From IMG/VR virus record IMGVR_UViG_3300005326_000011, positions 1-56,984 of that record: a stretch of 56,984 bases of DNA. One strand, written 5' to 3'. The DNA comes from a virus. Its lineage: Duplodnaviria; Caudoviricetes. Below the pieces are notes generated by a model. That model had not been told where the DNA came from, did not search any database, and was given only the letters and a program-made list of their open reading frames with translations. The position numbers and the translations under genes are program-made. Below are positions 733-50,665 of this stretch, piece after piece (the first letter of the stretch is position 1; the number at the start of each line of letters is the position of its first letter).

Positions 733-3030
733 ATGGATCCTAAACAAATAGAGCCGACATCTAAACAAAGGCCTTTTATTGAAACTGATGCCAGGTATGC
801 CTGTATGTCGGGCGGCTACGGTTGCGTAGCTGGTGAAACTAAAGTTTTTGATCCAACGATAGGAAAGAAAGTGCGGATTGATGAACTTAATCAGGGTCAT
901 GTTTATTCAAAACAATTTAAGGGTTACGGAATAAATTGGGCAACCAGACCTAAAAAATATAAAAAAACACGACTTTATAAGGTTAAGACTGAGAGAGGAA
1001 ATGAAATTATAGTTACGAAGAAGCATAAATTTTTTTCACAGGATGATTGGAAAACCCTCTCGTCTTTAAAGACTGGACAATCCCTTCTTGTATATGGCGG
1101 ACTCCATCCTTTGACCATTTTGGGCATTTTCCCGTCAATTCTACTTTCAGGTGTTTGGAGTTTTTGGAAAAAAGTTCAAGGTTTTCTATGGAATTGTTTT
1201 TCTTATTACCGTCTTTGTGATGAACGACTTCTGTGGGTAAAAGCCATCTCTTTAGTTTACCCTCCATCACAAGCCGATGCTGTCTTACGTAACCTCCTGA
1301 GTTCTCGAAGGGATGATTTGGAACTAAGACGAGAACGTAGCCATCTTTATCAATTAGAGTACCTCCTTTCCAAGAACCATTCCGAGAACCAGTCGGACCT
1401 CCCTGTGGCAAACGTGGAAGATTATATCTTCGGCCAATCTTCTGAATTGCTTTTTTCGACTTACCCATTATGGGTGCAATCTCTCTTGAACAAAGGCCTT
1501 TTGCATAAAGTTGTTTTATTTTTTCTAAAACTTCAGGGGATGTTTTGGACATGGTATTATAATCATACTCTACGGTATGAAAAAGTCAAGAGTATAAAAT
1601 ATGAACGAACTGATTATTATTATGATCTTCATGTTCCTCATTTTAATAATTATTTTGCCGAAGGATTTGTTAATCATAATTCGGGAAAAACTTTTGGAGG
1701 ATGTTTACGGGCTCTTCTTCTCTCATCAATTCCAGGAAATCGTGGTCTGGTTGGACGTTTAACTTATCGGGAACTGGCAGACACAACTCGTAAGACTTTC
1801 TTTGAGCTTTGTCCACCTGAATATTATGATGAGAAAAATGCTGGTCGTTGGTCGCCAACTGAAAATAATTTAACTCTTATTAATGGAAGTGAAATATTTT
1901 TTAGACATTTAGATACGGTGTCTGAGGCGGAACTTAAATCAATGAATTTGGGATGGTTTTTTATTGACCAGGCTGAGGAAATATCACTTAATGTAGTTCG
2001 AGTTTTACAATCCAGACTTCGACTTAACTCTGTTCCTCGCCGCTTTGGATTTTTTACCTGTAACCCTGAGCCTGGAAGCTGGATTGAGGAAATGTTTAAA
2101 CGTCCCTACGATGAGGGAAAGTTAAAGCCTGAGTTTTTTTATCTTGATACAACAACCTATGACAATCCATATAACCCTCCAGACTATGTTGCGGATTTAA
2201 TTCGCCAATACCCCCCCGAACTTGCCAAGCGGTATATTGAGGGACGCTGGGATGTTCTTGCTAATTTAATTTATACTGAGCTTGACCCGAAAGTTCATGT
2301 AATCAGACCCTTTACCGTTCCAAAATCATGGGAACATATAGTTTCAGTTGATCATGGAATGGTTAATCCAACAGGAGTTTTGTGGGCGGCACTTGATTAT
2401 GATTCAAATATATACATATTTGATGAGTATTATAGCCCAGGGGTTGTATCAGAACATGCCCGTGCAATTAAGGAAAAAACAGGAGATCGCAATGTTTCTT
2501 TATGGCTAATTGATCCATCAACTAAAGCAAAAACCCGTGAGAAAAAAGATGCTTATGGAAATGCTTTTCCCTGGTCAATAATTGAAGAGTATGAAGATTA
2601 TGGATTTTATTTTATTCCAGCAAATAACGAAAAGCTTGCGGGAATAAATCGAGTTAAGGAGTTTTTAAAACTTGATGATAGACGAATTAATCCACAAACT
2701 CGAAAAAAACCAGCTCCCCGTTTATATATTATGCAAAACTGTGTCAATTTGATTTGGGAGTTAAAACAATATAAATGGAGAAAGCTTCGAAGTATGACAA
2801 ATCGAAATGCTCCTGAGGAACCTGTTGATTTTGCTGATCATTTAGTTGATAGTTTAAGATATATTATTATGTCACGTTTCCCAACTCCGTCAAAAACTCC
2901 TGATGGAAAACTGATGATTACAAGGCTTGATAGGGAAAATGCTAATTTTATGTCAACAAACCAACCCGTTGTGGCTGATGAAGTCCTTGGTCAATATGGA
3001 AGTTCAAATGATGATTATGAAGCCGAATAA
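733..3030 (+). CDS. terL: Terminase large subunit containing an intein
   Basis: Walker A GGYG/SGKT split by the intein; GRLTYREL; Walker B-like FFIDQAEE; TCNP coupling motif; nuclease motifs VDHG and DHLVDSLRY. Confidence 0.95.
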   Translation: MDPKQIEPTSKQRPFIETDARYACMSGGYGCVAGETKVFDPTIGKKVRIDELNQGHVYSKQFKGYGINWATRPKKYKKTRLYKVKTERGNEIIVTKKHKFFSQDDWKTLSSLKTGQSLLVYGGLHPLTILGIFPSILLSGVWSFWKKVQGFLWNCFSYYRLCDERLLWVKAISLVYPPSQADAVLRNLLSSRRDDLELRRERSHLYQLEYLLSKNHSENQSDLPVANVEDYIFGQSSELLFSTYPLWVQSLLNKGLLHKVVLFFLKLQGMFWTWYYNHTLRYEKVKSIKYERTDYYYDLHVPHFNNYFAEGFVNHNSGKTFGGCLRALLLSSIPGNRGLVGRLTYRELADTTRKTFFELCPPEYYDEKNAGRWSPTENNLTLINGSEIFFRHLDTVSEAELKSMNLGWFFIDQAEEISLNVVRVLQSRLRLNSVPRRFGFFTCNPEPGSWIEEMFKRPYDEGKLKPEFFYLDTTTYDNPYNPPDYVADLIRQYPPELAKRYIEGRWDVLANLIYTELDPKVHVIRPFTVPKSWEHIVSVDHGMVNPTGVLWAALDYDSNIYIFDEYYSPGVVSEHARAIKEKTGDRNVSLWLIDPSTKAKTREKKDAYGNAFPWSIIEEYEDYGFYFIPANNEKLAGINRVKEFLKLDDRRINPQTRKKPAPRLYIMQNCVNLIWELKQYKWRKLRSMTNRNAPEEPVDFADHLVDSLRYIIMSRFPTPSKTPDGKLMITRLDRENANFMSTNQPVVADEVLGQYGSSNDDYEAE
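1013..1552 (-). CDS. HNH homing endonuclease with N-terminal HTH, encoded antisense inside the intein
   Basis: SWKGG..IDKDGY, YVRQHRLVME and EVVHHKDGNKKNNSIENLEL (HNH_3-type); HTH-like LYAKGLCSREIA. Confidence 0.9.
   Translation of the reverse strand: MSKTSPEVLEKIKQLYAKGLCSREIAPIMGKSKKAIQKIGRRYNLPRLPQGGPTGSRNGSWKGGTLIDKDGYVLVLVPNHPFENSGGYVRQHRLVMEGKLKRWLLPTEVVHHKDGNKKNNSIENLELFSKNSKHLKVELTGKCPKWSKDGVRHIQEGIVQSLKTRGFSNHPVKKIYASS
1562..1589 (-). promoter_or_regulatory. Putative sigma70 promoter for the antisense HNH, near-leaderless
   Basis: Minus strand TTGACT(1589-1584)-N16-TATGAT(1567-1562); ATG at 1552. Confidence 0.55.
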
Positions 3031-3295
3031 AATTCCAATTCCACCACTGCCTCCAAAATCCAATCTTTACAAACCAATTTCATTTTGGGCAGATATCATG
3101 TTGACTCTTGATAAAAAAATTCAATATATGGAGGAGAATATGGCGTTTGGTGAGGTTGGTGTAACTTTTAAACTTTGGCGGGGAAAAGTCACAGACATTA
3201 CATGGACTGACCATGTTAATGATAAACTTTCAGTTGATAAAATTGGTGGAAAAAATACAGTGATTGCTGAAAATAATAAAGATTTGACAAAATGA
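3017..3295 (+). CDS. Hypothetical protein; C-terminus loosely YezD/DUF2292-like
   Basis: FGEVGVTFKLWRGKVTDI; start probably among the ATGs at 3008-3017. Confidence 0.5.
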   Translation: MKPNKIPIPPLPPKSNLYKPISFWADIMLTLDKKIQYMEENMAFGEVGVTFKLWRGKVTDITWTDHVNDKLSVDKIGGKNTVIAENNKDLTK

Positions 3296-6867: not shown

Positions 6868-7000
6868 CGGAGATTTAGGGTTCTCACCTACTTTACCTGA
6901 TAGACGTATCAGGGTTTTAGGCGAGAATCCTTAAATCTTCGGGGGTCGCCCACCTTAGAGGTGTTAGACGTTACAATCGGAAGATTGTTTTAAAAATATT
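6868..7000 (+). ncRNA. Structured leader upstream of the scaffold gene
   Basis: Long stem CGGAGATTTAGGGTTCTCACCTA/TAGGCGAGAATCCTTAAATCTTCG with inner CCTGATA-GACG-TATCAGG; contains G-U pairs. Confidence 0.55.
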
Positions 7001-7702
7001 ATGGAAAATGATGAAAAAATAATCCCCGAGTCAACCCCGTCAGTTGAAAACCCAGTTGTTGACCCAACCCCATCGCAAGATGAGGATAAACAACCTGGTA
7101 AGAAGACGGCAGAAGCTCGGATTGATCAGCTTATTGCGATCAACAAACAGTTACAAAATGATTTACAGGAAGTAAAGGGAAAGGTAGATGCAATTCCTGT
7201 ACCTACCCCACCTCCTGAGCCTGTTGATCCAAGCGTAACTCCAGATGTTGAGAAAGCCGTAGGTTTTGTTAAAAAGGTTGGAAAATTCGTTGACCAAGAT
7301 TATCTTGAGAGTAAACTCAAGTCAATGGAGGATAGACGAGTTCTTGATTCCGAACACTCAAAATATGAGTCAACTTTTAACGGACAAGACGGTGGACCTG
7401 TTTATAACAGAGGTGAGATGGAAAAATACATGAATGATACAGGTATTTATAATCCAAAAGCCGCATATGAGCAGAAATTTAAAGACGAGCTTTTTGATCT
7501 CAGGCTTAAAACCCTTGAGAAGAGCCGAAAAACTAAAGCCTATGTACCAAATGCAAGTTCAACGGCAGAAACACGTGATAATAATTTAATCAGTCGTGAA
7601 AAGATTGATGAAGTTATGAAGCACCCAACGCCTGAAAATAAAGCATGGTATGAACAAAATAGAGCTTCTATTTTGGCTATGTATAGAAAGGGTCAATTAT
7701 AA
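7001..7702 (+). CDS. Putative capsid scaffolding protein
   Basis: Acidic Pro-rich N-terminus, coiled coil (AEARIDQLIA), directly before the capsid gene. Confidence 0.7.
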   Translation: MENDEKIIPESTPSVENPVVDPTPSQDEDKQPGKKTAEARIDQLIAINKQLQNDLQEVKGKVDAIPVPTPPPEPVDPSVTPDVEKAVGFVKKVGKFVDQDYLESKLKSMEDRRVLDSEHSKYESTFNGQDGGPVYNRGEMEKYMNDTGIYNPKAAYEQKFKDELFDLRLKTLEKSRKTKAYVPNASSTAETRDNNLISREKIDEVMKHPTPENKAWYEQNRASILAMYRKGQL

Positions 7703-7733
7703 ATTGACTACAGATAGGGGGTGAAAAAATAAT

Positions 7734-8831
7734 ATGGCACTCGGTACAGATCAGATGACGACCACAACGGGGGATTCTTTTATTCCCTCAGTATGGTCAG
7801 CGGAGGTACTTAGAGCAACTGAAAATGCTTTAGTAATGGCTCAATAACGGGGCCTTTTAGATTTAGCACTTGAAAATAGGTTAAAATCTATCAAAAAGGG
7901 GGCAAACTCGGGGAACACCCAGAACGGGTAACCGCCGAACTAAATAGGAGAAATCCTTAAAAGCGTAGAGAACAAACGCTCCCACTCTTTAAAAAGAGGA
8001 AGATATGTTCCGAACTGATTAGGAATAATCAGAAGCAAGAAATAGAAAACTTGCGATAACAAAAAGCCGTTAGTTAAGAGATTTGATAGTTTAGTTGAGG
8101 GTAAAGGGAATACTATTAATATTCCAAATTTGAGCAATTTATCAGCTTCAACAAAGTCTGCTAATACTCAAGTAACTTTACAAAGTCCAACTGAATCAAA
8201 CACATCAATCTCTATAACAACCCATAAAGAATCGTCATTTTTAGTGGAGGATCTTTTGAAGGTACAAGCCAGCTATGATTTAATGGCGGAATATACTTCA
8301 AAAGCAGGTGAATCTATTGCACGATCTGTTGATACTGATTTATTAGGCGTTTATTCCTCATCCACAAATACGGATGTTGGAGCTTATGGAACAGATATCA
8401 CTGATGCAACGATTCTTGCCGCTGCTGAATCTTTGGATTTAGCAAACGCACCTCTTGATGATAGAGCATTAGTTATCTATCCAACCCAAAAAACAGCCTT
8501 AATGAGAATTGATAAATTCGTTAAAGCTGACTATATGGGTCAATATCAAGATCCAACTGTTGTGAGAACAGGACCAAACTCAAGGTATATGTGGGGAGAC
8601 ATTTATGGAGTTCCAGTGTATTACACCAAACAGGTAACTCAGACTGCTGGTACACCTACACAAACTCATAACATGATGTTTCATAAGGAAGGTATTGCAT
8701 TAGCACTACAACAGGCTCCAAGAACACAAGCGGATTACCGTCTTGAATACTTGGGTACTTTAGTTGTTGTTGATGTTATATACGGATACACAGCTTTGAG
8801 ACCAACTTTCTTGCAACATATAAAGTCGTAA
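7734..8831 (+). CDS. Major capsid protein, spliced: exon 1 7734-7841 and exon 2 8067-8831 (290 aa)
   Basis: Joined MALGTDQMTTTTGDSFIPSVWSAEVLRATENALVMA|PLVKRFDSLVEGKGNTINIP; FIPxVW, GNTINIP, GDIYGVPVY and VDVIYG are HK97-fold capsid-like motifs; SD GGGGGTGA. Confidence 0.9.
7842..8066 (+). ncRNA. Group I self-splicing intron, 225 nt, no ORF
   Basis: 5' exon ends in U and intron ends in G; P1 GGCU/GGCC with U-G; P10 TAACGG(7845-50)/CCGTTA(8067-72); P3 GGGGGC/GCTCCC; P7 GAACA(7970-74)/TGTTC(8006-10); splicing restores the frame. Confidence 0.9.
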
Positions 8832-8837
8832 GATTTT

Positions 8838-8885
8838 ATGTAAAGTTCTTGGTGGTGTAAAGACACCACCAAGGGCATTTATATA
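8838..8885 (+). terminator. Hairpin after the capsid gene (terminator or processing stem)
   Basis: CTTGGTGGTGT-AAAG-ACACCACCAAG with AT-rich flanking pairing. Confidence 0.6.
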
Positions 8886-8898
8886 AGTTTATAAAAAT

Positions 8899-9114
8899 AT
8901 GGCAATAGTTATAATAAAATCAGGAAATGATAAAAGAGCTTCTCATTGGAATGAGATAAGATCAAGAGTTAAAACTCATGAGGGAGAATTTTTAACAGGT
9001 AGAAAAGGGCTTGAATATCAAAGAAAGTGGGGTCGTAAATATTTAGGTCGAGATTTAAATACAAGACCCGTTAGTTCATCAGACGTTGAGAGATTTGAAA
9101 AGACAGGACATTAA
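8899..9114 (+). CDS. Hypothetical protein
   Basis: ORF in the late operon. Confidence 0.6.
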   Translation: MAIVIIKSGNDKRASHWNEIRSRVKTHEGEFLTGRKGLEYQRKWGRKYLGRDLNTRPVSSSDVERFEKTGH

Positions 9115-18641: not shown

Positions 18642-19340
18642 ATGATACCTAAAAATATAAAATTATTCGTTGAGGGTGGTAAAAAAACAAGATTTATTAA
18701 AGGAAATAAATCTTGGAATTATGGAATGGCTAAAAAATACATTTGCAAAACTTGTAAAAATGAATTTAAAAACAAATCGCATGGAAGACCAAAGTATTGT
18801 AGCCCAAAATGTAAAAAAATCGGTAATTGGGGGAAATTAGTTGGTAAATGGAATTTGGGAAGAAAATTAAGTAAAGAAAGAAAAAAGCAGATGAGTAAAA
18901 AAGCAAAAGAATTAGGTTTAGGTAAAAACCTTTTTATCCCAGATATAAGAAAAAAAGCGATTGAAAATTCAAGAAGAAGATTAATTGGTAAACCAAGTTG
19001 GAATAGAGGAGGAAAAGCTCCTTGGGTCATTGGAGAAAAAAATATAAATTGGAAAGGTGGAATTTCTACAGAAAGTAGAAAAGAAAGAAAAATCTTTGAG
19101 TGGTTAAGGAAAGAGGTTTTAAAACGAGATGATTATACTTGTCAAATATGTTGGAAAAGGGGAGGAATTTTACATGTTGACCACATACAAAGATGGTCTG
19201 ATTTTAAAAACCTTAGATTTAAAATGGAAAATTGTAGAACGCTTTGTCAGATTTGTCATTATAAAATAACATTTAAAAGACCCATTTCAAATGAAAGTAA
19301 AAAGTGGGGTATTAAAAATTACTTTCAGATAGGAGGATAA
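18642..19340 (+). CDS. Free-standing HNH endonuclease with NUMOD3-like repeats
   Basis: NWKGG, VLKRDDYTCQIC, LHVDHI and NCRTLCQICH. Confidence 0.9.
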   Translation: MIPKNIKLFVEGGKKTRFIKGNKSWNYGMAKKYICKTCKNEFKNKSHGRPKYCSPKCKKIGNWGKLVGKWNLGRKLSKERKKQMSKKAKELGLGKNLFIPDIRKKAIENSRRRLIGKPSWNRGGKAPWVIGEKNINWKGGISTESRKERKIFEWLRKEVLKRDDYTCQICWKRGGILHVDHIQRWSDFKNLRFKMENCRTLCQICHYKITFKRPISNESKKWGIKNYFQIGG

Positions 19341-33722: not shown

Positions 33723-34019
33723 TCATATATTTTTAATTTTTATTAAATATTTTTCTACTTCTTTAGTTGTTAAATAACCTATTACATCATAAGTTATTTT
33801 AGTATCATAACAAATTATAAAATCATCTATTCCTTTTCCCATCCATTTAATTACTGCTAATTCCCATTCTAATTCGTTTCTTGTATAAGAAGCATATATA
33901 TCACCAATTTTATTTCTTACAACTGACGCTCCATAACCGTTTTTAAATCTATATAGTTTTTGAATACCATTACCTGTTGGATGTTTTATTTCTAAAAGTG
34001 GTTTTATATTTTTTTTCAT
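33723..34019 (-). CDS. Conserved phage hypothetical protein
   Basis: YRFKNGYGASVV...WELAVI pattern. Confidence 0.6.
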   Translation of the reverse strand: MKKNIKPLLEIKHPTGNGIQKLYRFKNGYGASVVRNKIGDIYASYTRNELEWELAVIKWMGKGIDDFIICYDTKITYDVIGYLTTKEVEKYLIKIKNI

Positions 34020-34507
34020 ATTTTTTTAAAAAATGTTTCTAATATGTATCTAACTAGGTTTCCATTTGATACGTTTTTTTTAGTAGCTTCAATATTTAGT
34101 CTTTTAAAGGTTCTTTCGTCTAATATAAATGTATATCTTTTTTGTTTACCTGGTGACAACTTAATTAATTTATATTTTTTTGGTTTTATTGGAGCTTTTT
34201 TAATAAAATTAATATGTTTTCTTCCTTTATGTTTTTTATAATGACATTTATGACATAATTTTTCTAAATTAGACATATCGTCATTTAAATTATTAAAATC
34301 TTTGTGATGTAAAAGAACTGCATTATTATTACAATTTTCACATTTACCCATATTTCTATATTTATTTTTTCTACTTCTTTTACCAGTATTTTTATATTTC
34401 ATAATTATTTGATGTATTCTTTGTCTTGTAACTCCAGTTTGTAAAGCTATTTGTTGAAATCCAAATCCTTGATTTTTTAATTCTAAAACTAATTCTTTAT
34501 TTATCAT
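34016..34507 (-). CDS. HTH-HNH-RHH-like endonuclease
   Basis: FQQIA..GVTRQRIHQI, CENC, HHKDFN..N..SNLEKLCHKCH; own promoter TTGACA-N17-TAATAT at 34543-34515. Confidence 0.8.
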   Translation of the reverse strand: MINKELVLELKNQGFGFQQIALQTGVTRQRIHQIIMKYKNTGKRSRKNKYRNMGKCENCNNNAVLLHHKDFNNLNDDMSNLEKLCHKCHYKKHKGRKHINFIKKAPIKPKKYKLIKLSPGKQKRYTFILDERTFKRLNIEATKKNVSNGNLVRYILETFFKKI

Positions 34508-34670
34508 ATATCTTATATTAACAAATAACTTTACATTTGTCAAGTACTATTTACTTAGTAATATGTAGTGTGTATGTATTATTGAAGAAGTATGGCGATA
34601 AAAAACAAAATGGCATAGATTATTACTACTCCAAAAAATATTCCAAATATTAGTTCAATTCCAGCTATTA

Positions 34671-39167: not shown

Positions 39168-40286
39168 ATGACAAGTATAAAATATTGTGGGTCATTTCTT
39201 GATTCATCAGGCTATGGTTCAGCTAATCGTGCCTTTATTGCTGCTTTATTTATTGCAGGAGTTGATGTGACAACTGAACTTGCAGTTCATATGAAAGAGC
39301 AAGTAAATGTTCACTGGACTGGAGAACTTGCAATAAACCTTAAAAATAGAAATATTTCATATCAGGTAAAAATTATTCATTTAACACCAGATTTGTATGA
39401 GAATTATGTAGAAAAAGGAAAATATAATATTGGACATTTGTTTTGGGAAGTAGATAAACTTCCACAAGACTGGGTTGATAAGTGTAATCGAATGGATGAG
39501 ATATGGACTTCATCTGCCCACATGGTTGAACTTTTTAAAAGTTGTGGTGTTAAGGTTCCAGTTTATGCTTTTGCTCAGCCCATAGATATTTCTATGGCTG
39601 ATAAAGACTATAAAAAGTATGCACTTATTGGACATACTGGACTTTTATTTTATTCCATTTTTCAATGGATTGAAAGGAAAAATCCAAAACTTCTTCTTAA
39701 AGCATTTTGGGAAGCATTTGAGGGACATGATGATGTATCTCTTCTTCTTAAAACTTTTCGTTTATCTTATGACCAATCGGAATTTGATAAGATAAGAAAT
39801 GATATTTGGGAATGGAAAAGAGAGATGGGAAAAGGAATTTTTCCAAAAGTTTATCTTACGTCAAAGGCTATGCATCATGATGAGATTATGAGAGTTCATA
39901 GGACTGGTGATGTATTTGTACTTCCCCATAGAGGTGAGGGTTGGAACAGATGTATTGCCGAGTCACTTCTTATGGGTAATGTAGTTACAGCAACCGCTCG
40001 TGGTGGAATTCATGAGTATTTACGAGATGAGCATTACTTTGGACTTCCAAGTAAAATGGTTCCTGTAACTGAGGTTCCTTGGATTAAGTTCTATACAAAA
40101 GATCAAAATTGGGCTGAGGCTGATAAAGAATATTTAATTAAAACTATGAAATATATTTATAAAAATTATGAACTTTGTAAAGCTAAGGGAATTACAGCAC
40201 GTGAATATGTTAAGGAGAATTTTAATTATTATAAAATTGGTTACCTCATGAGAGAGCGACTTGAGGAGATTTATAAAAAATTATGA
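39168..40286 (+). CDS. GT-B (GT4-like) glycosyltransferase
   Basis: DSSGYG, WIERKNP and FVLPHRGEGW...ES. Confidence 0.9.
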   Translation: MTSIKYCGSFLDSSGYGSANRAFIAALFIAGVDVTTELAVHMKEQVNVHWTGELAINLKNRNISYQVKIIHLTPDLYENYVEKGKYNIGHLFWEVDKLPQDWVDKCNRMDEIWTSSAHMVELFKSCGVKVPVYAFAQPIDISMADKDYKKYALIGHTGLLFYSIFQWIERKNPKLLLKAFWEAFEGHDDVSLLLKTFRLSYDQSEFDKIRNDIWEWKREMGKGIFPKVYLTSKAMHHDEIMRVHRTGDVFVLPHRGEGWNRCIAESLLMGNVVTATARGGIHEYLRDEHYFGLPSKMVPVTEVPWIKFYTKDQNWAEADKEYLIKTMKYIYKNYELCKAKGITAREYVKENFNYYKIGYLMRERLEEIYKKL

Positions 40287-40630
40287 AGATTAGAGATAAT
40301 AAGGGAAGATTTATAAAAGGACATCCTCGATTAGGTGGTGTTTTATTTAAGAAAGGCTCTATCCCTTGGAATAAGAATGGTAATCAACCACAGACAGCAA
40401 AAGAAAAAGCATATAATTGGAAAGGTGATAGTGTTAAATATAGAGGTTTACATATGTGGATTTCTAATAATTTAGGTAAGGCAAAAAAATGTTCAAATAA
40501 TATAAAACATATATCTACTCGTTATCATTGGGTAAATATTAATCATACATATAAAAGAAATTTTAATGATTGGATTGAACTATGTCCATCTTGTCATAGA
40601 TTATATGATAATGGAAAAATAATATTATGA
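40283..40630 (+). CDS. Small HNH/His-Cys endonuclease with NUMOD3-like N-terminus
   Basis: GRFIKGH, PWNK, NWKGD.V.YRGLH.W and DWIELCPSCH. Confidence 0.8.
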   Translation: MKIRDNKGRFIKGHPRLGGVLFKKGSIPWNKNGNQPQTAKEKAYNWKGDSVKYRGLHMWISNNLGKAKKCSNNIKHISTRYHWVNINHTYKRNFNDWIELCPSCHRLYDNGKIIL

Positions 40631-41646
40631 AGATACATTACTTAAGTTGTCATTCTATTTTAGAATATGATGAAGCATCTCTTTTTACAGAATTAGGACA
40701 TGATGTTTTTTGTAATGGTGTATATCTTGATCCAAAAGGACATATTGATTTACCAAGACCTGGCATTAGTGGAATGACACATCATACAGAATATGTAGAA
40801 TTAGCTCAAAAATTTGCTAAAACAAATCTTCCAAAAGAATTAATAGATCCATTTGATATTATATTTGTTGCTCATCAGCCTGAATGGGTAACTGAAAACT
40901 GGGAAAGAATGAAACATAAAAAAGTTATTTGGCGAAGTATTGGTCAATCAACAAGAACTGTTGAGAATATGATTAGAAAATGTAGATATGAGGGGCTTAA
41001 AATTGTTAGATATTCTCCAATGGAACAAAATATTCCAGATTATTTAGGAGCTGATGCGATAATTCGTTTTTATAAAGATCCTAAGGAATTTGGAAATTAT
41101 AACGGTAATGAAAAAAGAGTTATTAATTTTACTCAAACATTAAAAGGAAGACGTTTATTTTGTCATTACGATCATATTATGGCAATGGTTGAGGGATTTC
41201 CTGCAATGATTTATGGGTCAGGAAATGATGACCTTGGTCCACTTAACGGAGGGAAAATTCCTTATGATTTAATGAAGGGAGCACTTCGGGATAATCGAGT
41301 ATTTATTTATGGTGGAACATGGCCTGCCTCATATACTTTAACTTTAATTGAGGCGATGATGACTGGAACCCCCGTTGTTACAATTGGTCGGAAAATGGCG
41401 ACTGAAATTCCTGAGCTTGCAACAGCTGAGGTTGGTAATTTCTTTGAACTTCCAAATATCATAACAAATGAACAGAATGGATTTATGTATGATGATATTG
41501 GGTCTTTACGAAATGCAATTCATAAATTACTTGAAGATCACACATTGGCTAAAAAAATTGGTCAAAAGGGAAGAGAAAAGGCGGTTGAGCTTTTTGGCAA
41601 GGATAAAATAAAGGGGGAATGGAATAAATTTTTAAATTCTATATGA
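40627..41646 (+). CDS. GT-B (GT4-like) glycosyltransferase
   Basis: LIEAMMTGTPVV, NEQNGF and IGQKGRE.A.ELF. Confidence 0.85.
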   Translation: MKIHYLSCHSILEYDEASLFTELGHDVFCNGVYLDPKGHIDLPRPGISGMTHHTEYVELAQKFAKTNLPKELIDPFDIIFVAHQPEWVTENWERMKHKKVIWRSIGQSTRTVENMIRKCRYEGLKIVRYSPMEQNIPDYLGADAIIRFYKDPKEFGNYNGNEKRVINFTQTLKGRRLFCHYDHIMAMVEGFPAMIYGSGNDDLGPLNGGKIPYDLMKGALRDNRVFIYGGTWPASYTLTLIEAMMTGTPVVTIGRKMATEIPELATAEVGNFFELPNIITNEQNGFMYDDIGSLRNAIHKLLEDHTLAKKIGQKGREKAVELFGKDKIKGEWNKFLNSI

Positions 41647-42044
41647 TAATTTTAAAACCATTGGATTTGCGAGATATTGAATGGGCAAGGATTTTAAGAA
41701 ATAAATATAAGAAATATTTTGATGATAAAGAAATTTCTCAGACAGATCAAAATAGATGGTATAAAAGGTATATATATAAAAAGAATTATGAATTTTATGT
41801 TATTGTTAAAGATGATAAAAATATAGGAACGGTTTCTTTACTTGTGACTGATAAGTATGTAAAAATAGGTGATTTAATTACAGAAGTTGAAGATACTAAT
41901 TTATTTAAGGAAATAATTGAAGAGATAGATAAAAAATATAAATGTCCATATATGCTTGATATGACAGAAAATAATTCTTATTTACTGAAAATTATTCAAA
42001 AAATGGGATTTATTACAAAAGTTATAAGTTTATATAAAAAATGA
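41643..42044 (+). CDS. GNAT acetyltransferase (PseH-like)
   Basis: LKPL..RDIE..RILRN, IS..DQ.RWY, IGTVSL and KMGF. Confidence 0.65.
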   Translation: MIILKPLDLRDIEWARILRNKYKKYFDDKEISQTDQNRWYKRYIYKKNYEFYVIVKDDKNIGTVSLLVTDKYVKIGDLITEVEDTNLFKEIIEEIDKKYKCPYMLDMTENNSYLLKIIQKMGFITKVISLYKK

Positions 42045-42685
42045 TTACAAAATATTTTGAAGAGATATTAGGTCAAAAAACAGTTCCTGAGGTCACTGAT
42101 AATAGATATAAAATGTTTGATGATGGAGGTGTTGAGGCTGAACTTGGTGATTTTCTATATGGATTAGTTCGAGTAGTTAAACCAAAAAATGTTCTTGAAA
42201 CGGGACTTTATTCAGGAATTAGTGCTTCGTATATGGCAAAGGGACTTCAAGACAATGGAGAGGGACATCTAATTTCAATAGAGTTTGAAGCTATGCATGT
42301 AGAACGAGCAAAATCCAGATTATTAAAATTAAACCTCCTTCCATATGTAACAGTCGAACACACATCTTCATTAACTTTTAATCCACAAAATACCTTTCAA
42401 ATTATTCTTCTTGATACTGAGCCAAATATTCGTTTTCAAGAACTTGTGAGATATTTTCCGTATTTAGATGAAGGTGGATTTATGTTTATCCATGACCTTC
42501 CAAGAAATATGTGTCAGGGTAATTTTAACACAGATCATCCAGAAATCAAGTCTTGGCCATTTGGAGATATCCCTTCTGAAATGAAAAAGTTATTTGATGA
42601 GAAGAAACTTATTAGATTTCATTTACCATCACCTCGTGGGATGGTAGGGCTATATAAACCACGCAAAGATGATTATGGATATTAA
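42041..42685 (+). CDS. Class I SAM O-methyltransferase
   Basis: KPKNVLETGLYSGIS and GGFMFIHD. Confidence 0.85.
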   Translation: MITKYFEEILGQKTVPEVTDNRYKMFDDGGVEAELGDFLYGLVRVVKPKNVLETGLYSGISASYMAKGLQDNGEGHLISIEFEAMHVERAKSRLLKLNLLPYVTVEHTSSLTFNPQNTFQIILLDTEPNIRFQELVRYFPYLDEGGFMFIHDLPRNMCQGNFNTDHPEIKSWPFGDIPSEMKKLFDEKKLIRFHLPSPRGMVGLYKPRKDDYGY

Positions 42686-43205
42686 ACAGATAGTTGCAGA
42701 AAGCAGAGCCAGTATTGTCAAAAGTGACCTTGAAGTATTACTTAATATGGCTAAGTCTTTTGATATAAGAAATATTCTTGAGATTGGAACATGGAAAGGT
42801 TATTCGGCTGAAGTTTGGATTAAGGCATTTTTTCCAAATAAATTTGTGACTATTGAAAAAGAACCTAAGTTTTCTGATGCTGTTGAAATTAAAAACATTA
42901 ATCATAAATATTTTTGGAATACGAATTCTCATAGTAATGAAATCAAATTTAATACAGAGCTTTATGACTTTTTATTTATTGACGGAGATCATTCTTATGG
43001 GGGGGTAAAAAAAGACTTTGAGATGTATAGTCCACTTGTTAAAAAAGGTGGTCTTATTGTATTTCATGATATAATTTATGTTTCAAACGATGTAAATGCT
43101 CCAGTTCAAGTAAAATTTCTTTGGGATGAATTAAAGTTAAAATATAATTATTTAGAAATTAAAACCGACCAGAGTTCAACTGGTATGGGAGTATTATTTA
43201 TTTAA
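42669..43205 (+). CDS. Class I SAM methyltransferase (Methyltransf_24-like)
   Basis: ILEIGTWKG, FIDGDHSY and GGLIVFHD. Confidence 0.9.
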   Translation: MIMDIKQIVAESRASIVKSDLEVLLNMAKSFDIRNILEIGTWKGYSAEVWIKAFFPNKFVTIEKEPKFSDAVEIKNINHKYFWNTNSHSNEIKFNTELYDFLFIDGDHSYGGVKKDFEMYSPLVKKGGLIVFHDIIYVSNDVNAPVQVKFLWDELKLKYNYLEIKTDQSSTGMGVLFI

Positions 43206-43220
43206 AAGGAGGAAAATAAA

Positions 43221-43622
43221 TTGGCAGACGAACAGCATTGGTGTGGTGCTAAATTAGTCAATGTAACTCCCGATAAAACTCTATATCCTGATATTGCAGA
43301 GGGAGTTGGAATTAGTGGAATGATAGATTGTCAGGGAAAAGTGACTATTGAGAAAGATGTCTTTTCAGGACATGACATTATGATTTTGACAGGAAGTCAT
43401 AATTATCTTGCCTTTGGATATGAAAGAAGAAGGCAGGGTGTAATTAAGCCCGTTTTGATTAAGGAGGGAGCATGGCTTTGCACAAGATGTATTATCTTAC
43501 AAGGAGTAACAGTTGGTCGTCATGCTGTAATTGGAGCAGGTTCTATTGTTACAAAAGATGTTCCTGATTATGAGTTCTGGGCTGGTAACCCAGCAAAATT
43601 AATAAAAGTTATACCACATTAA
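43221..43622 (+). CDS. Hexapeptide-repeat sugar O-acetyltransferase
   Basis: GVTVGRHAVIGAGSIVTKDVP..AGNPAK. Confidence 0.9.
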   Translation: MADEQHWCGAKLVNVTPDKTLYPDIAEGVGISGMIDCQGKVTIEKDVFSGHDIMILTGSHNYLAFGYERRRQGVIKPVLIKEGAWLCTRCIILQGVTVGRHAVIGAGSIVTKDVPDYEFWAGNPAKLIKVIPH

Positions 43623-43627
43623 TTTAT

Positions 43628-43693
43628 ATGAAAATTCTTATAACAGTTAATAAAATAGATTTGACAAGAGCTGGTTTTATTAGTAGTATGTAG
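43628..43693 (+). pseudogene. Decayed duplicate of the epimerase N-terminus, now overlapping the HNH promoter
   Basis: MKILIT(VNKIDLT)RAGFISSM* versus MKILITGCAGFIGSNM; contains TTGACA-N17-TAGTAT. Confidence 0.65.
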
Positions 43694-43695
43694 GA

Positions 43696-44088
43696 ATGAA
43701 GAATTATTCTTTAGGAAAAAAATGTTTAGATTGCGGGAAGAATAAGTCTGATAGAGGAAATTATTGTAAGAAATGCGGATATAAGTATAGAGTTAGACCA
43801 AAGGGATTAAAGTATAAAATTGTAGTTGTTAATAAGGGTTGGTTTGAAAATAAGGGAGGTTGGATTGATGAAAGTGGATATAGAAAAATACGGATAAATG
43901 GGAAGCAAATTAGGGAGCATGTTTACATATTGGAAAAACATTTAGGAAGAAAACTTTTAAAAAGTGAAGTTTCTCATCATATAAACGGAGATAAATTAGA
44001 TAATAGAATAGAAAATTTACAAGTTGTTTCTAAAAAGAAACATGATAAGTTTCATCATTATAAATTTAGGAAAGGTTTAATTATATGA
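43696..44088 (+). CDS. HNH endonuclease
   Basis: CLDC..CKKC and REHVYILEKHLGRKL..HHINGDKLDNRIENL. Confidence 0.9.
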   Translation: MKNYSLGKKCLDCGKNKSDRGNYCKKCGYKYRVRPKGLKYKIVVVNKGWFENKGGWIDESGYRKIRINGKQIREHVYILEKHLGRKLLKSEVSHHINGDKLDNRIENLQVVSKKKHDKFHHYKFRKGLII

Positions 44089-45140
44089 AGATACTCATAA
44101 CGGGTTGTGCAGGATTTATCGGGAGCAATATGTCAGTTGAGGCAATTAGTCGTGGTCATTCAGTAGTTGCTTTTGATAATTTATGGCGACCTGATGTTTC
44201 AGATAATGTTAAATATATGAAGAAAAAGTATGGAGATAAGTATGAGTTTATTTGGGGAGATGTAAGAAATCCAGAGGATTTAGAGAAAGTTCCAGAAGTT
44301 GACGCTGTAATTCATCTGGCTGCAAATCCTGGAGCAATCTCATCGGTCTATTTTCCAATATATGATTTTAGAAGTAATGCGATGGGAACATTTAATGTTT
44401 GTGAATTTGTACGAAAAAGAGGGTTAAAGATGATTTATGCATCAACCACTAAAACAATGTCAGACATTATGAATACTTTCCCAATGGTTGAAACAGATAA
44501 AAGAATGGATCCAACAAGAGGAGAATACCCTGATGTTACAAAAGTAGGATTGGATTTTGAGGGCGGGAAGGCAGTTGCAGTTAATGATAAATTTCCAATT
44601 GATGGATTTGGAAAGTGGGGACATTCTCCTTATGGAATATCAAAACTAACTGGAGAGTTATATGTTCAAGAATTTCATGTAACATTTAAAGTGCCTGTTG
44701 TTATTTTTAGAATGAGCTGTATTTATGGAATATTTCAAAAGGGAATAGAGGAGCAAGGTTGGGTAGCATGGTTTTTGAAACAGATTAAAAATGGTGATGG
44801 AAAGATTAACATATTTGGTAATGGTAAACAAGTAAGAGATGTGCTTGATGGTCGGGATGTAGCCAGAATTTATTTAAGAGCTCTTGATAATATAGATACA
44901 GTTAATGGAGAAATATTTACAGTAGGTGGTGGAGTGAAATATAACTATTCATTACTTGAGGTAATTTCCAAAATTGAGGAAATGACAGGTAAGAAAGCCC
45001 AATTAACTTTTAAGGATAAGCGACCAGCTGACGGAGATTGGTATGTGTCAAGTAACAAAAAAGCTAAAGAGTTGTTAAATTGGGAGCCTGAGATTGGATT
45101 AGAACAGGCACTAAAGGACATGATTCAATCTTATGAGTAG
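44085..45140 (+). CDS. NAD-dependent nucleotide-sugar epimerase, CDP-paratose 2-epimerase (RfbE)-like
   Basis: TGCAGFIG, PYGISK, FRMSCIYG..Q.G..QGWVAWF and GKQVRDVL. Confidence 0.85.
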   Translation: MKILITGCAGFIGSNMSVEAISRGHSVVAFDNLWRPDVSDNVKYMKKKYGDKYEFIWGDVRNPEDLEKVPEVDAVIHLAANPGAISSVYFPIYDFRSNAMGTFNVCEFVRKRGLKMIYASTTKTMSDIMNTFPMVETDKRMDPTRGEYPDVTKVGLDFEGGKAVAVNDKFPIDGFGKWGHSPYGISKLTGELYVQEFHVTFKVPVVIFRMSCIYGIFQKGIEEQGWVAWFLKQIKNGDGKINIFGNGKQVRDVLDGRDVARIYLRALDNIDTVNGEIFTVGGGVKYNYSLLEVISKIEEMTGKKAQLTFKDKRPADGDWYVSSNKKAKELLNWEPEIGLEQALKDMIQSYE

Positions 45141-45969
45141 AGCAATTATTACATCAATGCATTGTTATACCCCTTGGGGTAGAGATTATTATCAACCCAT
45201 TGAGGATTATTTTATTGGGAACTTAACTAAGTATAAAGATGAATTTGACCATTTATATATATTAGACTCCCAGTGGGGATTCGAACCACTTCCTGAATGG
45301 ATAACTGTGATTAAGACCAATCCTTCAGTTCGTTACTATGACGCTTATAAACAAGTATTACCAGATATAAAAGAAGAAGAGGTGTTGTTTTTAGATAATG
45401 ATTTTGTTATTTATAAGCCAGGAGTGATTAGTATGATTTTTGGGTGGCTTAAGGAATATGGAGTAGCTTCTATTTTTGATACGATTGGAGATTTTAAGAC
45501 AGATAAAATGAATGGAAAAAATAAGCTGTGTCCATATTTTTTTGCAAGTAGCAAGAAATTACTTATGAATTATCTTGATGTAGATTGGGGAAATCATATG
45601 CCTCATTCTGAAACATTGGGGCTATTAACAGAGGAGATGCTTAAAGATAATATAAAACTTTGGGAGATGCAGGAGGATAAATCTAACTTTTTATTTGGTG
45701 AAACACTTGGGAGTAGACGAAGTAAAAACTTCGGATATTATCATGTTCGTAGTGGTTCAACTCCAGCATATCTACTTTCTCATAGACAAAGAGGGGATAG
45801 GCAGTATACAGATTATCTTAAAAATCAACCAAAGAGCGAATATCTTCGTCAAATGGCTTGGTATCAGATAATGGGTGGAGACGTTGATTCTCTTATTGGA
45901 GATTTGGTTATAGGTATAAATGAGTGGAGTGAATATATTAAGAATTTTAAGATATTTCATGGACTTTGA
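45133..45969 (+). CDS. GT-A-like glycosyltransferase paralog 1
   Basis: LFLDND and GYYHVR. Confidence 0.6.
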   Translation: MSRAIITSMHCYTPWGRDYYQPIEDYFIGNLTKYKDEFDHLYILDSQWGFEPLPEWITVIKTNPSVRYYDAYKQVLPDIKEEEVLFLDNDFVIYKPGVISMIFGWLKEYGVASIFDTIGDFKTDKMNGKNKLCPYFFASSKKLLMNYLDVDWGNHMPHSETLGLLTEEMLKDNIKLWEMQEDKSNFLFGETLGSRRSKNFGYYHVRSGSTPAYLLSHRQRGDRQYTDYLKNQPKSEYLRQMAWYQIMGGDVDSLIGDLVIGINEWSEYIKNFKIFHGL

Positions 45970-46050
45970 TTACCCACCAATTTTAGAAATAATTATTTAT
46001 ATATTAGTTTGGATGTTGATATTTTATTTATTACCATTACCATCAATAAA

Positions 46051-46248
46051 ATGAAAAAAACATTAGGAGAATTGATTGACTGTTTAAGTGTAACTAATAT
46101 AAAAATATTTATGTTGGTAGAAAAAGTTCAAAAGAACGAACATACTAAAGAAGAGGCTAAAAAAATTCAGGACTTAAATAGATATCGTTCAGAGCTTACT
46201 AATGCTATTAATGAATTTAATAATGAAAGGAAAGAAATAAAATTATGA
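46051..46248 (+). CDS. Small coiled-coil protein of glycan clusters (DUF4254/DUF6165-like)
   Basis: TLGELID.LS..NIK...LN..RS.L...IN. Confidence 0.55.
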   Translation: MKKTLGELIDCLSVTNIKIFMLVEKVQKNEHTKEEAKKIQDLNRYRSELTNAINEFNNERKEIKL

Positions 46249-47177
46249 GTAGAGCTTATATTACGACATTTCATAATTATAGTGAGCCATTTCATACAGA
46301 TTATTATAAAGTTTTTTATGATTATTTTGTAGCTCAGTTTAATTTATGGTGTGATTTGGTAGATACAGTTTATATTATAGACACTAATTGGAACTTTACG
46401 GAAGATGATAAAAAACGATTAACTGATATTAAAAAGGAAGTTGTGTTTTATAAATCGCCAATTCAAGGTCATCATAATAAACAGTATCAGGAATTTCTCC
46501 CTCAGATTAAAGAAGATGAAATGCTTTTTATGGATAATGATGTATTTATAACTAAAAGATTTGGAATAAGCGATTGGTTTTTTAAAGCACAAAATAAGGA
46601 GGCTGTAATCAGTTGGTTTGGTTATCAATCATCTAAGTATCCACAAGGAGCAATTAAAGATCCACTATGGAATAAATATCCGTTTTTAAAAGAAAGAGAT
46701 GTTGTGTTTATGGAAAGTTGTCATTTTTTATTAACTAAAAAACTTTTAAAAAGAATAGGAAAGGATTTAGATTTTATGAATTATCAACCATTTAAGGAGG
46801 GGACATATATTAAGGATTTTGATTATCATACTAAAAAAGGTGATTGGTGTGAGTTTTTTGGACTTTTAGGATATCAGATATTGTCTGGCAATAATTGGGC
46901 TGAGATGCCAACAAGTGAGTATGGTTGGGGATATTATCATGTTAGAGCTTGTAGTTATGTATATTTACTTTTAAGTTATAAGAAATTAGGCTTACCTCAA
47001 TATGGTGATTTTTTAAAGAATTTTAAGAAAGAAGATATTATTGAAAGGTTGGTTTGGTTTTATATTTTAGATAAGAATGGGAAATATCATAAAGAATTAT
47101 TTGAGATTGTAAAAGATTTTGAAATAGAACTTGGTGAATTTAAAAATAAAGTTTATCAATTAGAACAGAAGATATGA
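46245..47177 (+). CDS. GT-A-like glycosyltransferase paralog 2
   Basis: LFMDND and GYYHVR; MSRA.IT..H.Y N-terminus shared with paralog 1. Confidence 0.6.
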   Translation: MSRAYITTFHNYSEPFHTDYYKVFYDYFVAQFNLWCDLVDTVYIIDTNWNFTEDDKKRLTDIKKEVVFYKSPIQGHHNKQYQEFLPQIKEDEMLFMDNDVFITKRFGISDWFFKAQNKEAVISWFGYQSSKYPQGAIKDPLWNKYPFLKERDVVFMESCHFLLTKKLLKRIGKDLDFMNYQPFKEGTYIKDFDYHTKKGDWCEFFGLLGYQILSGNNWAEMPTSEYGWGYYHVRACSYVYLLLSYKKLGLPQYGDFLKNFKKEDIIERLVWFYILDKNGKYHKELFEIVKDFEIELGEFKNKVYQLEQKI

Positions 47178-48154
47178 GTAAAAGAGCTGTAATTTTAGGT
47201 ACTGGCGCATTTCCATTAATACTTCGTCTTTGGCTTGAAATGCTTAAAAAATGGCAGGATGAGGTAGATGTTGTTTATATAGCTATTGATAATTATAATG
47301 TTCCATCAAGTAGAGAATATATTTTAAATTTAGTTAAACAATTTTCTAAAGTTAAATTACTTGAGGAGTTAAGAGGTTGGCCTAATTCTTATGCTGATGT
47401 TATTAAACAAAGTAATGCAGATACATTTCTTATTATGCATGATGATGCGTTTGTTTATAAAAAAGGAATAGTTGATAAGTATTTTAAGATAGCTGAGGAG
47501 GGGAAAGTAGTAACTCAAAGACATGGAATTTATGAACCATCAGATATTGTCAATGAGGCTCTTCAGAAAAAATATGGTTGGACTAATGATATTGCCCCAT
47601 ATTCATTTTTACTTTATTTTCTTTTTATATCTCGTCTTAATTTGGAGAAAACAACTATGAATTTTAATGGTATAGGTTGGCAAGCGGGAGATAATATTCC
47701 TCTTCTTGGGATTAAAAATGCTCCAGTATCAATTGCTGGAGATACGGGATTTCTTTTGGGACTTGAGTTATTTGAAAAGCAGGTTCCATTTCACTTTATT
47801 CCCCGAAGTGAAACATCAGGGTTAGTTCAAGAACTAAATCCAATTCGTTTTCTTATTGAACAAATGAAAGATAAACAGGGGATATTTAAACATGGTTGGT
47901 TACATTTACAAAATACAGGAAATACTATTCCTTTATGGTTTAAACAAGATATAGACGCACATCCGTGGCACGGTAACATAGAGAAAATAAGGCTTGCTTG
48001 GATGTATACAATGCTCCAGTTTGATTATAGTGAAATTCCTGATTTTAAATATCAAGCTGATGAAATATTTAAAGGAGTAATGGTAAGATGTGGACTTGAT
48101 ATTGAAGAGATAAAAATTATTAGTAATATTTTTCAAATACTTTTATATGGGTAA
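47174..48154 (+). CDS. GT-A-like glycosyltransferase paralog 3
   Basis: IMHDDAFVYKKG and WLHL. Confidence 0.6.
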   Translation: MSKRAVILGTGAFPLILRLWLEMLKKWQDEVDVVYIAIDNYNVPSSREYILNLVKQFSKVKLLEELRGWPNSYADVIKQSNADTFLIMHDDAFVYKKGIVDKYFKIAEEGKVVTQRHGIYEPSDIVNEALQKKYGWTNDIAPYSFLLYFLFISRLNLEKTTMNFNGIGWQAGDNIPLLGIKNAPVSIAGDTGFLLGLELFEKQVPFHFIPRSETSGLVQELNPIRFLIEQMKDKQGIFKHGWLHLQNTGNTIPLWFKQDIDAHPWHGNIEKIRLAWMYTMLQFDYSEIPDFKYQADEIFKGVMVRCGLDIEEIKIISNIFQILLYG

Positions 48155-49124
48155 ATCTGCTCTTTTAAGTACTTGCGGAGATCCATTCATTTTACTTCTT
48201 GGGATTAAGTTGTGGAAGGAGAGATGGTATGATGAGATAGATAATTTATATATTAATTACAATAATCATTGTCAAATTCCATATAACATAGTAACGGAGT
48301 GTTTTTCAAGATTAAATGATAAAAAGATTCATTTAATTTATCATCCCTCAGGAATTGGAAATGGACCTCCTCAGGTTGAGAATTTGCTTATTGCAAAAGA
48401 GGATTTGGTTTTACTTCTTGAAGATGATTTTTACATATTTACAAAAGGTATAGTTAGTGGGTATTTTAAAAAGATTGAAAGTGGAGAATGTGATTTACTT
48501 GGATCACCCCGTTATACATATGGTGAAGTAGCCGATAGTGCAAAGAAAAAATACAATCTTGATTATAATGGTGAGGGAGATCGTGGTTTTGGTTGGTGGC
48601 CAACTGGATTTTATTGTAAGCGTAAAGATTTATTAAAAACTGATTTGGATTTTGGTAGTAAGAAATATAGTCGGGGAGAGTATTTTAAAGAGCTTGATTA
48701 TACATTTAAAGAAGATAATTATACTGATACTTTTACTTGGACTTCAGTTCAACTTCGAGCTATGGGGCTTAAAGCTATTGAAATTCCCCAATATCACGCT
48801 GATGTTTATGAGATTGAAAGTAAGCAAAAAGGTATAATGAATTGGAGAAATGGTAATCCACCATATATTCATGGGGGTAGTCTCTCTGCGGGATGGGGGG
48901 GCTACCTTTCGGGTCGACTTCCTGACGTATCTCATGTTGCCGCCAAACAGGAAATAGAAACAAGATGTGCTTTTTGGAAGATAGCCTCAGATGTAGTTGA
49001 GGGGTTTGAACAATTTAAAGACCAATATCGAAGCGGGATAGAAAATCTTATTATCTCATGTTCTCTTGATCGTGATAGAATAAACACAAAGATTAAAATT
49101 TATAAAACATTAATGAATTTATGA
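48147..49124 (+). CDS. GT-A-like glycosyltransferase paralog 4
   Basis: LLEDDFYIF.KG and YIHGG. Confidence 0.6.
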   Translation: MGKSALLSTCGDPFILLLGIKLWKERWYDEIDNLYINYNNHCQIPYNIVTECFSRLNDKKIHLIYHPSGIGNGPPQVENLLIAKEDLVLLLEDDFYIFTKGIVSGYFKKIESGECDLLGSPRYTYGEVADSAKKKYNLDYNGEGDRGFGWWPTGFYCKRKDLLKTDLDFGSKKYSRGEYFKELDYTFKEDNYTDTFTWTSVQLRAMGLKAIEIPQYHADVYEIESKQKGIMNWRNGNPPYIHGGSLSAGWGGYLSGRLPDVSHVAAKQEIETRCAFWKIASDVVEGFEQFKDQYRSGIENLIISCSLDRDRINTKIKIYKTLMNL

Positions 49125-50661: not shown

Positions 50662-50665
50662 AATT

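Follow-up and report, generated by a model that had tools for sequence, protein, structure and literature searches.

A predicted group I intron without an open reading frame in the sole major capsid gene of an uncultured phage from groundwater

Phages with an intron in the capsid gene have been described before. The capsid gene of mycobacteriophage LittleE contains an intron of 820 bp with a LAGLIDADG-like open reading frame (ORF), whose splicing was demonstrated by reverse transcription PCR and N-terminal sequencing, and the capsid-gene intron of the lactococcal phage Tuc2009 is cited in the same paper (PMC3706429). For the Delta and Zeta groups of crAss-like phages, up to three introns per capsid gene, together with a terminase intein, are described in a review (PMC10136315). 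We report here a further example, an intron of 225 nucleotides (nt) without an ORF in the major capsid gene of the virus IMGVR_UViG_3300005326_000011 (Duplodnaviria; Caudoviricetes). The whole stretch of DNA that was analysed, referred to as the window, is this virus record, which is complete (56,984 bp; completeness 100%, with direct terminal repeats), and the sequencing runs in which a run search located its sequence are labelled as groundwater metagenome. Like LittleE, Tuc2009 and the crAss-like phages, as far as PMC3706429 and PMC10136315 describe them, the window combines an intron in the major capsid gene with a terminase intein and free-standing HNH genes, but its capsid protein is of a different family and the introns were compared by description only.

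The segment 7842-8066 is very probably a functional group I intron without an ORF, located in the only major capsid gene of this complete 57-kb phage and apparently derived from a lineage with a same-site member that bears an HNH endonuclease gene. The parts of the split gene were assigned as follows.

7716..7723, + strand: Shine-Dalgarno-like AGGGGGTG, read from the sequence, 10 nt 5' of the exon 1 ATG
7734..7841, + strand: capsid exon 1, 36 amino acids (aa), C-terminal ...ENALVMA; phrog_267 major head protein, profile positions 19-60
7842..8066, + strand: group I intron, 225 nt, without an ORF, with stop codons in all three + frames
8067..8831, + strand: capsid exon 2, 254 aa and stop codon; phrog_267 with E 1e-38, profile positions 69-320

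The two exons were scanned separately against protein families. Exon 2 also matched Phage_capsid_4 (PF25209; 37.2 bits, cut-off 27) and Phage_capsid_2 (PF19821; 30.1 bits, cut-off 25), so the product exceeds the curated profile cut-offs for an HK97-type major capsid protein. The frame opened by the ATG at 7734 ends in CAA TAA (7842-7847) after 36 capsid-like residues and one Gln. Deletion of the 225 nt at 7842-8066 fuses 7734-7841 with 8067-8831 into a single frame of 290 aa, which reproduces what a preliminary description of the locus had claimed. The position of one C at the junction is ambiguous; the rule of U at position -1 and a terminal G in the intron sets the boundaries at 7841/7842 and 8066/8067. 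The predicted ligated exons are ATGGCT^CCGTTA (a caret marks junctions throughout), in the wider context ...GTAATGGCT^CCGTTAGTT...

A search with exon 2 yielded 460 homologues (E <= 0.001), and the junction was assessed in the best 120 of them. It is spanned (...ENALVMA^PLVKRFD...) in 117, with at least 30 residues upstream of it in 95, 10-29 residues in 14 and a start 1-9 residues before it in 8; the window's own 233-aa ORF is one of the three that do not reach it. The length of exactly 290 aa is that of most of these homologues. The closest of them, P0002 (88% identical, 290 aa), has no intron at the window's site and is identical to the predicted spliced product around the join (...RATENALVMAPLVKRFDSLVEGKGNTINIPNLSN...) and also in the stretch ...RATENALVMAPLVKRFDSLVEGKGNTINIPNLSNLSASTKSANTQVTLQ. 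The capsid family has no close cultured relative (best tblastn identity <=32%), and blastn of 7000-9000 against cultured phages gave no match.

If the segment were not removed, the capsid protein would be a product of 233 aa starting at TTG 8130, and exon 1 would be a dead remnant. An ORF at 8130-8831 does exist and is the one reported by gene callers (P0001, 233 aa), but such a protein would lack 57 residues at the N-terminus, among them the part of the sequence that is best conserved in the capsid family, and no Shine-Dalgarno site comparable to AGGGGGTG was found before TTG 8130. Moreover, exon 1 is undamaged, and its codon differences from eight uninterrupted relatives are mostly synonymous (14-19, as against 3-13 non-synonymous), which indicates purifying selection; the ribozyme core is intact as well. 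Translation from TTG 8130 is thus scarcely credible. No second capsid copy was found within the window. With its only major capsid gene interrupted, the phage should need RNA splicing to produce capsid protein; this proposal of the preliminary description agrees with a single capsid gene, a complete genome and an intron without an ORF.

The intron can be folded into the helices listed below.

7845..7854, + strand: internal guide sequence, UAACGG^GGCC; nt 1-6 of it form P10 with exon 2, nt 7-10 form P1 with the end of exon 1
7858..7890, + strand: P2 hairpin, 7858-7864 with 7884-7890 and inner pairs, from the minimum-energy fold
7898..7903, + strand: P3 5' strand GGGGGC, partner 7978-7983
7908..7938, + strand: P4/P5; P4 is 7908-7913 with 7932-7938, G7934 bulged, and P5 has 3 bp, 7918-7920 with 7926-7928
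7940..7963, + strand: P6, short, with a GAAA loop; 7946-7949 with 7954-7957, outer pairs 7940-7941 with 7962-7963
7968..7974, + strand: P7 5' strand, G, bulged A7969 and GAACA; G7970 lies in the presumed guanosine-binding G-C pair
7978..7983, + strand: P3 3' strand GCUCCC, with AAC (7975-7977) as the only spacer from P7
7985..7998, + strand: P8 hairpin CUCUU-UAAA-AAGAG
7999..8011, + strand: J8/7 GAAGAUA and P7 3' strand UGUUCC, aligned to the Rfam consensus GAAGAUAUAGUCu
8015..8032, + strand: P9 hairpin, 7 bp, GGAA loop
8035..8054, + strand: second 3' hairpin (P9.1-like), GCAAG...CUUGC, identical in the capsid-gene introns L121 and L064 (see below)
8055..8066, + strand: 3' tail GAUAACAAAAAG with terminal G 8066; the GCGAUAACA motif is common to the whole intron family

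P1 consists of U7841·G7851, C7840-G7852, G7839-C7853 and G7838-C7854, with C7842-G7850 in addition. The intron bases 7845-7850 (UAACGG), immediately 5' of the P1 strand, can pair along their whole length with the start of exon 2 at 8067-8072 (CCGUUA), their exact reverse complement; in the fixed register of P10, a perfect match of 6 bp has a chance of about 1 in 4096. J4/5 is A-rich (AACA) and J5/4 is UAA. A script check found all pairs of P3-P9 and of the second 3' hairpin to be standard. The U-G pair of P1, the 6-bp P10, P3, P8, P9 and the terminal G noted earlier are all present. Unconstrained minimum-energy folding returned eight of the helices (P2, P3, P4, P5, P6, P8, P9 and the second hairpin), and the fold of the intron has a z-score of -4.13, none of 200 shuffles folding as well. 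The P1 stem-loop (7838-7854) with the following UUUU was flagged by a terminator scan, probably a coincidence of P1 and the U-rich start of P2.

The comparison with group I models by Infernal that had been proposed in the preliminary description gave a full-length match to Rfam Intron_gpI (RF00028), covering 7832-8032 over model positions 1-253 with 36.8 bits (E 7.3e-8, search of 501 nt). P1-P9, J4/5, J8/7 GAAGAUA, the U·G pair at the 5' splice site and the terminal G are common to the model and the window intron. The model differs in its strongly conserved P7 consensus GACUA/UAGUC, from which the P7 of the window departs at four positions, and P5, P6 and P8 are very short in the window. Of the features that define group I introns, the U·G in P1, P10, the P3-P8 and P4-P6 domains, the P3/P7 pseudoknot and the terminal G are all present. 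So is the G-C pair beside the bulge (G7968-C8011, bulged A7969, G7970-C8010), guanosine binding being presumed from the sequence. The introns typical of phages belong to subgroups IA1 and IA2. A P7.1/P7.2 extension between P7 and P3, the criterion for these subgroups in PMC3984707, was not found in the window intron, which has AAC only at this place and is therefore assigned to no subgroup here.

We then asked how the intron is related to others. A covariance model (R1) was built from the window core alone (7896-8066, 38 pairs), with P7 omitted because it forms a pseudoknot. In the 3' part of the intron, blastn against cultured phages gave a weak signal for 52 Streptococcus phage records (79 nt, 72.6% identity, E 0.8). 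The best record match lies between two annotated halves of the large terminase gene (TerL) of phage P4761 (KY705258.1), where a group I intron scores 52.5 bits on Rfam, above the cut-off. The P4761 intron resembles that of the window in its 3' end (...GAAC-P9-AGAAGC...CUUGCGAUAACAAA) and in being a group I intron of a phage structural or packaging gene, but it has the canonical P7 GACUA/UAGUC, an insertion of ~66 nt between P7 and P3 and a length of ~300 nt, and it resides in another gene and in a phage of another host phylum. A pattern on the common 3' end retrieved 26 viral contigs, and its UGACC version retrieved 11 more. R1 matched 53 further places in 42 of these loci (E <= 1e-4). In the R1 alignment (48 distinct rows), 95.1% of the cells pair compared with 59.8% in shuffles (0 of 500 reach 95.1%), standard pairs fall to 32-43% when the partners are slid, and both-side changes occur in 36 of the 38 pairs. 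Among the 12 best R1 matches the window core is the shortest (171 nt; the others 186-221 nt). As judged from these comparisons, the window intron is a member of a large phage group I family with a common 3' end composed of J8/7, P7, P9, a hairpin and GCGAUAACA.

Two by-products of these searches can be mentioned. A pattern AGAGAACAAA..AAGATATGTTC applied to viral contigs gave 5 loci which were coding-like, none of them group I by Rfam, and which we took as chance matches. Three to five separate R1 matches within a few kb were seen in L035 (2723-7886) and also in L037, L044, L027, L040 and L038, which look like intron-dense regions.

The closest cousins came from a scan of metagenome contigs with the capsid alignment, which gave 80 loci. 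Two of these, L064 and L121, contain introns homologous to that of the window, each with 82.8 bits to R1, and a third relative, L143, lies in another phage gene and not in a capsid gene; from P3 to the 3' end the cores of all three are homologous to that of the window (82.8-89.4 bits to the window-derived model). The L064 intron, whose core scores 44 bits on Rfam, stops right before the same Pro codon as in the window (...CUAG^CCACUCGUUAAG) and includes an HNH endonuclease ORF, of which the C-terminal part is seen and which reaches into P3. The L121 intron (874-1123, 250 nt, without an ORF, on the same contig as L133) is inserted 4 nt downstream of the window's site, GGGU^UAGUA. A 3-nt repeat makes its boundary ambiguous and the U/G rule was applied to place it. 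Its own guide sequence fits its site and differs from that of the window; L121 shows the same intron lineage at two neighbouring insertion points.

L064 and L121 share with the window an identical second 3' hairpin and GGAA loop of P9, and they interrupt the same stretch ...ALV(M/A)A^(P/G)LVKR... In L064, L121 and L143, unlike the window intron, P7 is GGUCA/UGACC, P6 is longer and P7 and P3 are separated by a hairpin. This hairpin is also present in L134-L142, whereas the window has AAC only, a shorter P6 and no ORF. The introns of the window, L064 and L121 were aligned by hand because MAFFT misaligned P6-P8. Across 36 pairs (P3, P4, P5, P7, P8, P9 and the second hairpin), 15 show both-side changes, 19 are invariant and 2 are changed on one side, and a single cell out of 108 is unpaired. 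The window intron is best read as a trimmed offshoot, without an endonuclease gene, of the L064-type capsid-gene lineage. The HNH-bearing cousin L064 points to a loss of the endonuclease gene rather than to collaborative homing.

The preliminary description had drawn attention to a variant P7. In the window, P7 is composed of G7968-C8011, the bulged A7969 and GAACA (7970-7974) paired with UGUUC (8006-8010). The described GAACA/UGUUC with two compensated pairs and a retained G-C pair is thus correct; the variant is not special, since P7 varies with compensation across the family. Relative to GGUCA/UGACC of L064 and L121, two P7 pairs are swapped with compensation, the closing P7 pair of L121 is A-U instead of G-C, and the G-C pair beside the bulge is invariant in the window, L064 and L121 (3 of 3). 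The P7 3' strand was counted in the 48 distinct aligned rows, a biased set, as this strand was prescribed in two of the patterns used to collect it:

UAGUC: 33 of 48 rows
UGACC: 10 of 48 rows
UAUGC: 2 of 48 rows
UGGUC: 1 of 48 rows
CAGUC: 1 of 48 rows
UGUUC: 1 of 48 rows, the window only

All 48 rows have the C of the guanosine-binding pair. UGUUC combined with the 3' end pattern of the family gave 0 matches in metagenome contigs. The exact P7 variant of the window is rare, but to judge by the aligned relatives a compensated P7 change is normal in this intron family (GGUCA/UGACC, GACUG/CAGUC and others).

These data also bear on the question whether the intron is decaying, so that splicing has been abolished by the altered P7, the shortened P6 and the loss of P7.1, and the genome is the dead end of a defective phage. 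A UGUUC strand that is unique among 48 relatives, the missing peripheral elements of the cousins and the sub-threshold Rfam score would fit this. We nevertheless consider it very improbable, since each of the two P7 changes has its compensating partner, neither the G-C binding pair nor the bulged A has been lost and all core helices are intact; moreover, the genome is complete and runs from two studies contain the same sequence. In the second of these studies, a 493-nt contig is identical over 7753-8245, with 0 differences and the whole intron included.

Several points weigh against a functional intron with the history proposed here. The score of Intron_gpI stays below the gathering score of 50 bits, for which reason neither the whole-window Rfam scan at gathering score (0 matches) nor an RF00028 search of the window's own record (no match) returned anything. 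The L064 contig begins inside the intron and exon 1 is unseen, so the "same site" of L064 and the window refers to the 3' splice site. The R1 alignment was fitted to the structure which it tests and the three-intron alignment was made by hand, and both lean towards that structure; the margin of R1 pairing over the shuffles is large despite the fitting. The support for splicing is drawn from sequence comparison; the run search listed no RNA run, and both of the runs compared are DNA. Loss, and not gain, of the HNH gene and P7.1 is the presumed direction of change, and the catalysis and efficiency of the window intron are likewise inferred. The strong comparative evidence leads us to regard the element as a genuine group I intron, its boundaries as correctly placed and its splicing as very probable.

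For a functional intron, the standard course of splicing can be proposed. The capsid pre-mRNA would fold into the core of the P3-P8 and P4-P6 domains, and the guide sequence 7845-7854 would hold the end of exon 1 via U7841·G7851. The attack after U7841 would come from a free guanosine that P7 binds at its G7970-C8010 pair. The terminal G8066 would next occupy the guanosine site while P10 aligns exon 2, and ligation of the exons to ...AUGGCU^CCGUUA... would yield the 290-aa capsid protein.

The related capsid genes have introns at at least four positions. At or beside the window's site, 2 of the 78 assessable metagenome loci are interrupted (L064 and L121) and 76 are contiguous. A second site lies before W-S-x-E-V-L-R (approximately codon 20), where 13 of 76 assessable loci are interrupted:

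L058, L061, L062, L065, L066, L070, L086, L087, L090, L091, L095, L109, L119 (L086 and L087 look identical)

Among 20 IMG/VR loci, the window's site is interrupted in 0 of 18 assessable ones, and the upstream site has an interruption in L014 and L015. The insert of L058 (1844-2326, +) has an ORF of 160 aa with a motif which we take to be of the LAGLIDADG type. The inserts at the second site end in ...GCAGAGACUGAAUGA...GAAGCGACAGUCC..., i.e. they have P7 GACUG/CAGUC, and R1 scored 33.6 bits on L061, 16.6 on L065 and 14.5 on L090. An Rfam E-value scan of 12 interrupted loci found L064 alone (44 bits) and Rfam gave no match on the IMG/VR capsid loci, so the assignment of the upstream-site introns to group I follows from the R1 matches and from motifs read by eye. 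The second-site introns account for homologues of 256 and 268 aa, which start at the first Met after the site. L127 is interrupted at a third place (1444-3055), after ...SNYDL (approximately codon 107), with an R1 match at 1807-1982 (25.1 bits) and an ORF of 156 aa on the opposite strand (1986-2456). In L119, codon 37 (~1695-1697) is an in-frame TAG where relatives have Ser or Gly (...LVAA-stop-LVKRFD...); this could be a sequencing error, a pseudogene or recoding.

It is tempting to see the conserved N-terminal capsid stretch as a homing hot spot contested by competing lineages, with LAGLIDADG enzymes at about codons 20 and 107 and HNH enzymes at codon 36/37. The window intron would then be a free-rider that has been naturally reduced to 225 nt, has exchanged two P7 pairs with compensation and has lost P7.1 as well as the endonuclease gene; it would be spread only in trans, as a copy placed in alleles cut by enzymes of its cousins or by the HNH enzymes of the phage itself. 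This picture taken as a whole is tentative and we think it rather doubtful. If it were true, the intron would be among the smallest working phage group I ribozymes and would represent a case of collaborative homing at the level of an intron family.

The window itself encodes two HNH proteins, which are given here as context only.

18642..19337, + strand: free-standing HNH ORF, 232 aa, Pfam PF01844 with E 1.2e-8, 10.6 kb from the intron
43696..44085, + strand: free-standing HNH_3 ORF, 130 aa, Pfam PF13392 with E 2.1e-10, 35.6 kb from the intron

The preliminary description had suggested that a free-standing HNH enzyme mobilises the intron in trans. In such collaborative homing, an HNH enzyme of the phage would cut intron-less capsid alleles at or near the site during co-infection and thereby spread the intron. 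The enzyme gene typically lies beside the intron-bearing gene in these cases, and the psbA intron of cyanophage S-PM2 reportedly combines the lack of an ORF with the free-standing endonuclease F-CphI. The window phage is similar to these systems in having a small group I intron without an ORF and two free-standing HNH genes, and intron-less targets exist (P0002 and the 76 contiguous metagenome loci); the mechanism is documented for two phages in the review PMC3984707. In contrast to those systems, the HNH genes are not adjacent to the intron and recognition of the insertion site by either HNH protein is unsupported. Both genes are distant from the capsid gene and not linked to the target, and the next ORF after the capsid gene (8899-9114) gave no Pfam match. 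A tblastn search of the window with the HNH fragment of the L064 intron gave nothing significant (best E 0.26, CxxCH motif only). With distant ORFs that do not resemble the L064 enzyme, the suggestion was not borne out, and we judge mobilisation by the phage's own HNH proteins to be unlikely. The intron of the window may persist by vertical inheritance, or may be copied when another enzyme cuts an intron-less allele. In the contigs of the two DNA runs, an intron-less form was not seen.

For annotation, the consequence is that gene callers give the 233-aa fragment P0001 here, and many relatives appear as calls of 252-268 aa that are really exon 2 of intron-split genes. Capsid-based classification of such metagenomic phage genomes is affected by these fragment calls. 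With the intron described here, an uncultured groundwater phage family would join those phages that rely on RNA splicing for their most abundant virion protein. The intron also offers a compact natural ribozyme (core of 171 nt) with clear cousins for comparison. The capsid segment of ~90 codons, with at least four insertion points and different endonuclease types, provides material for studies of the turnover of introns and endonucleases.

Other features of the genome were recorded as well. A terminator-like hairpin follows the capsid gene:

8845..8876, + strand: hairpin of 14 bp, 3' of the capsid gene, from a terminator scan

The large terminase (733-3030, +, 765 aa) contains an intein (Pfam Intein_splicing, residues 47-316, E 1.2e-17), the terminase domains beginning at residue 317. 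Essential late genes of this phage thus contain a protein-splicing as well as an RNA-splicing element, and with the intein and the two HNH ORFs selfish elements are plentiful in this genome. A ...LCHKCH motif at 34241-34276 (-), within the ORF 34019-34543, resembles the zinc-finger end of HNH proteins and may mark a third HNH-like ORF, which had no Pfam match at E 0.001. The region 39168-53329 is a sugar-modifying block (glycosyltransferases, methyltransferases, hexapeptide transferase, NAD-dependent epimerase/dehydratase and M24 peptidase) into which the HNH_3 ORF at 43696-44085 is inserted.

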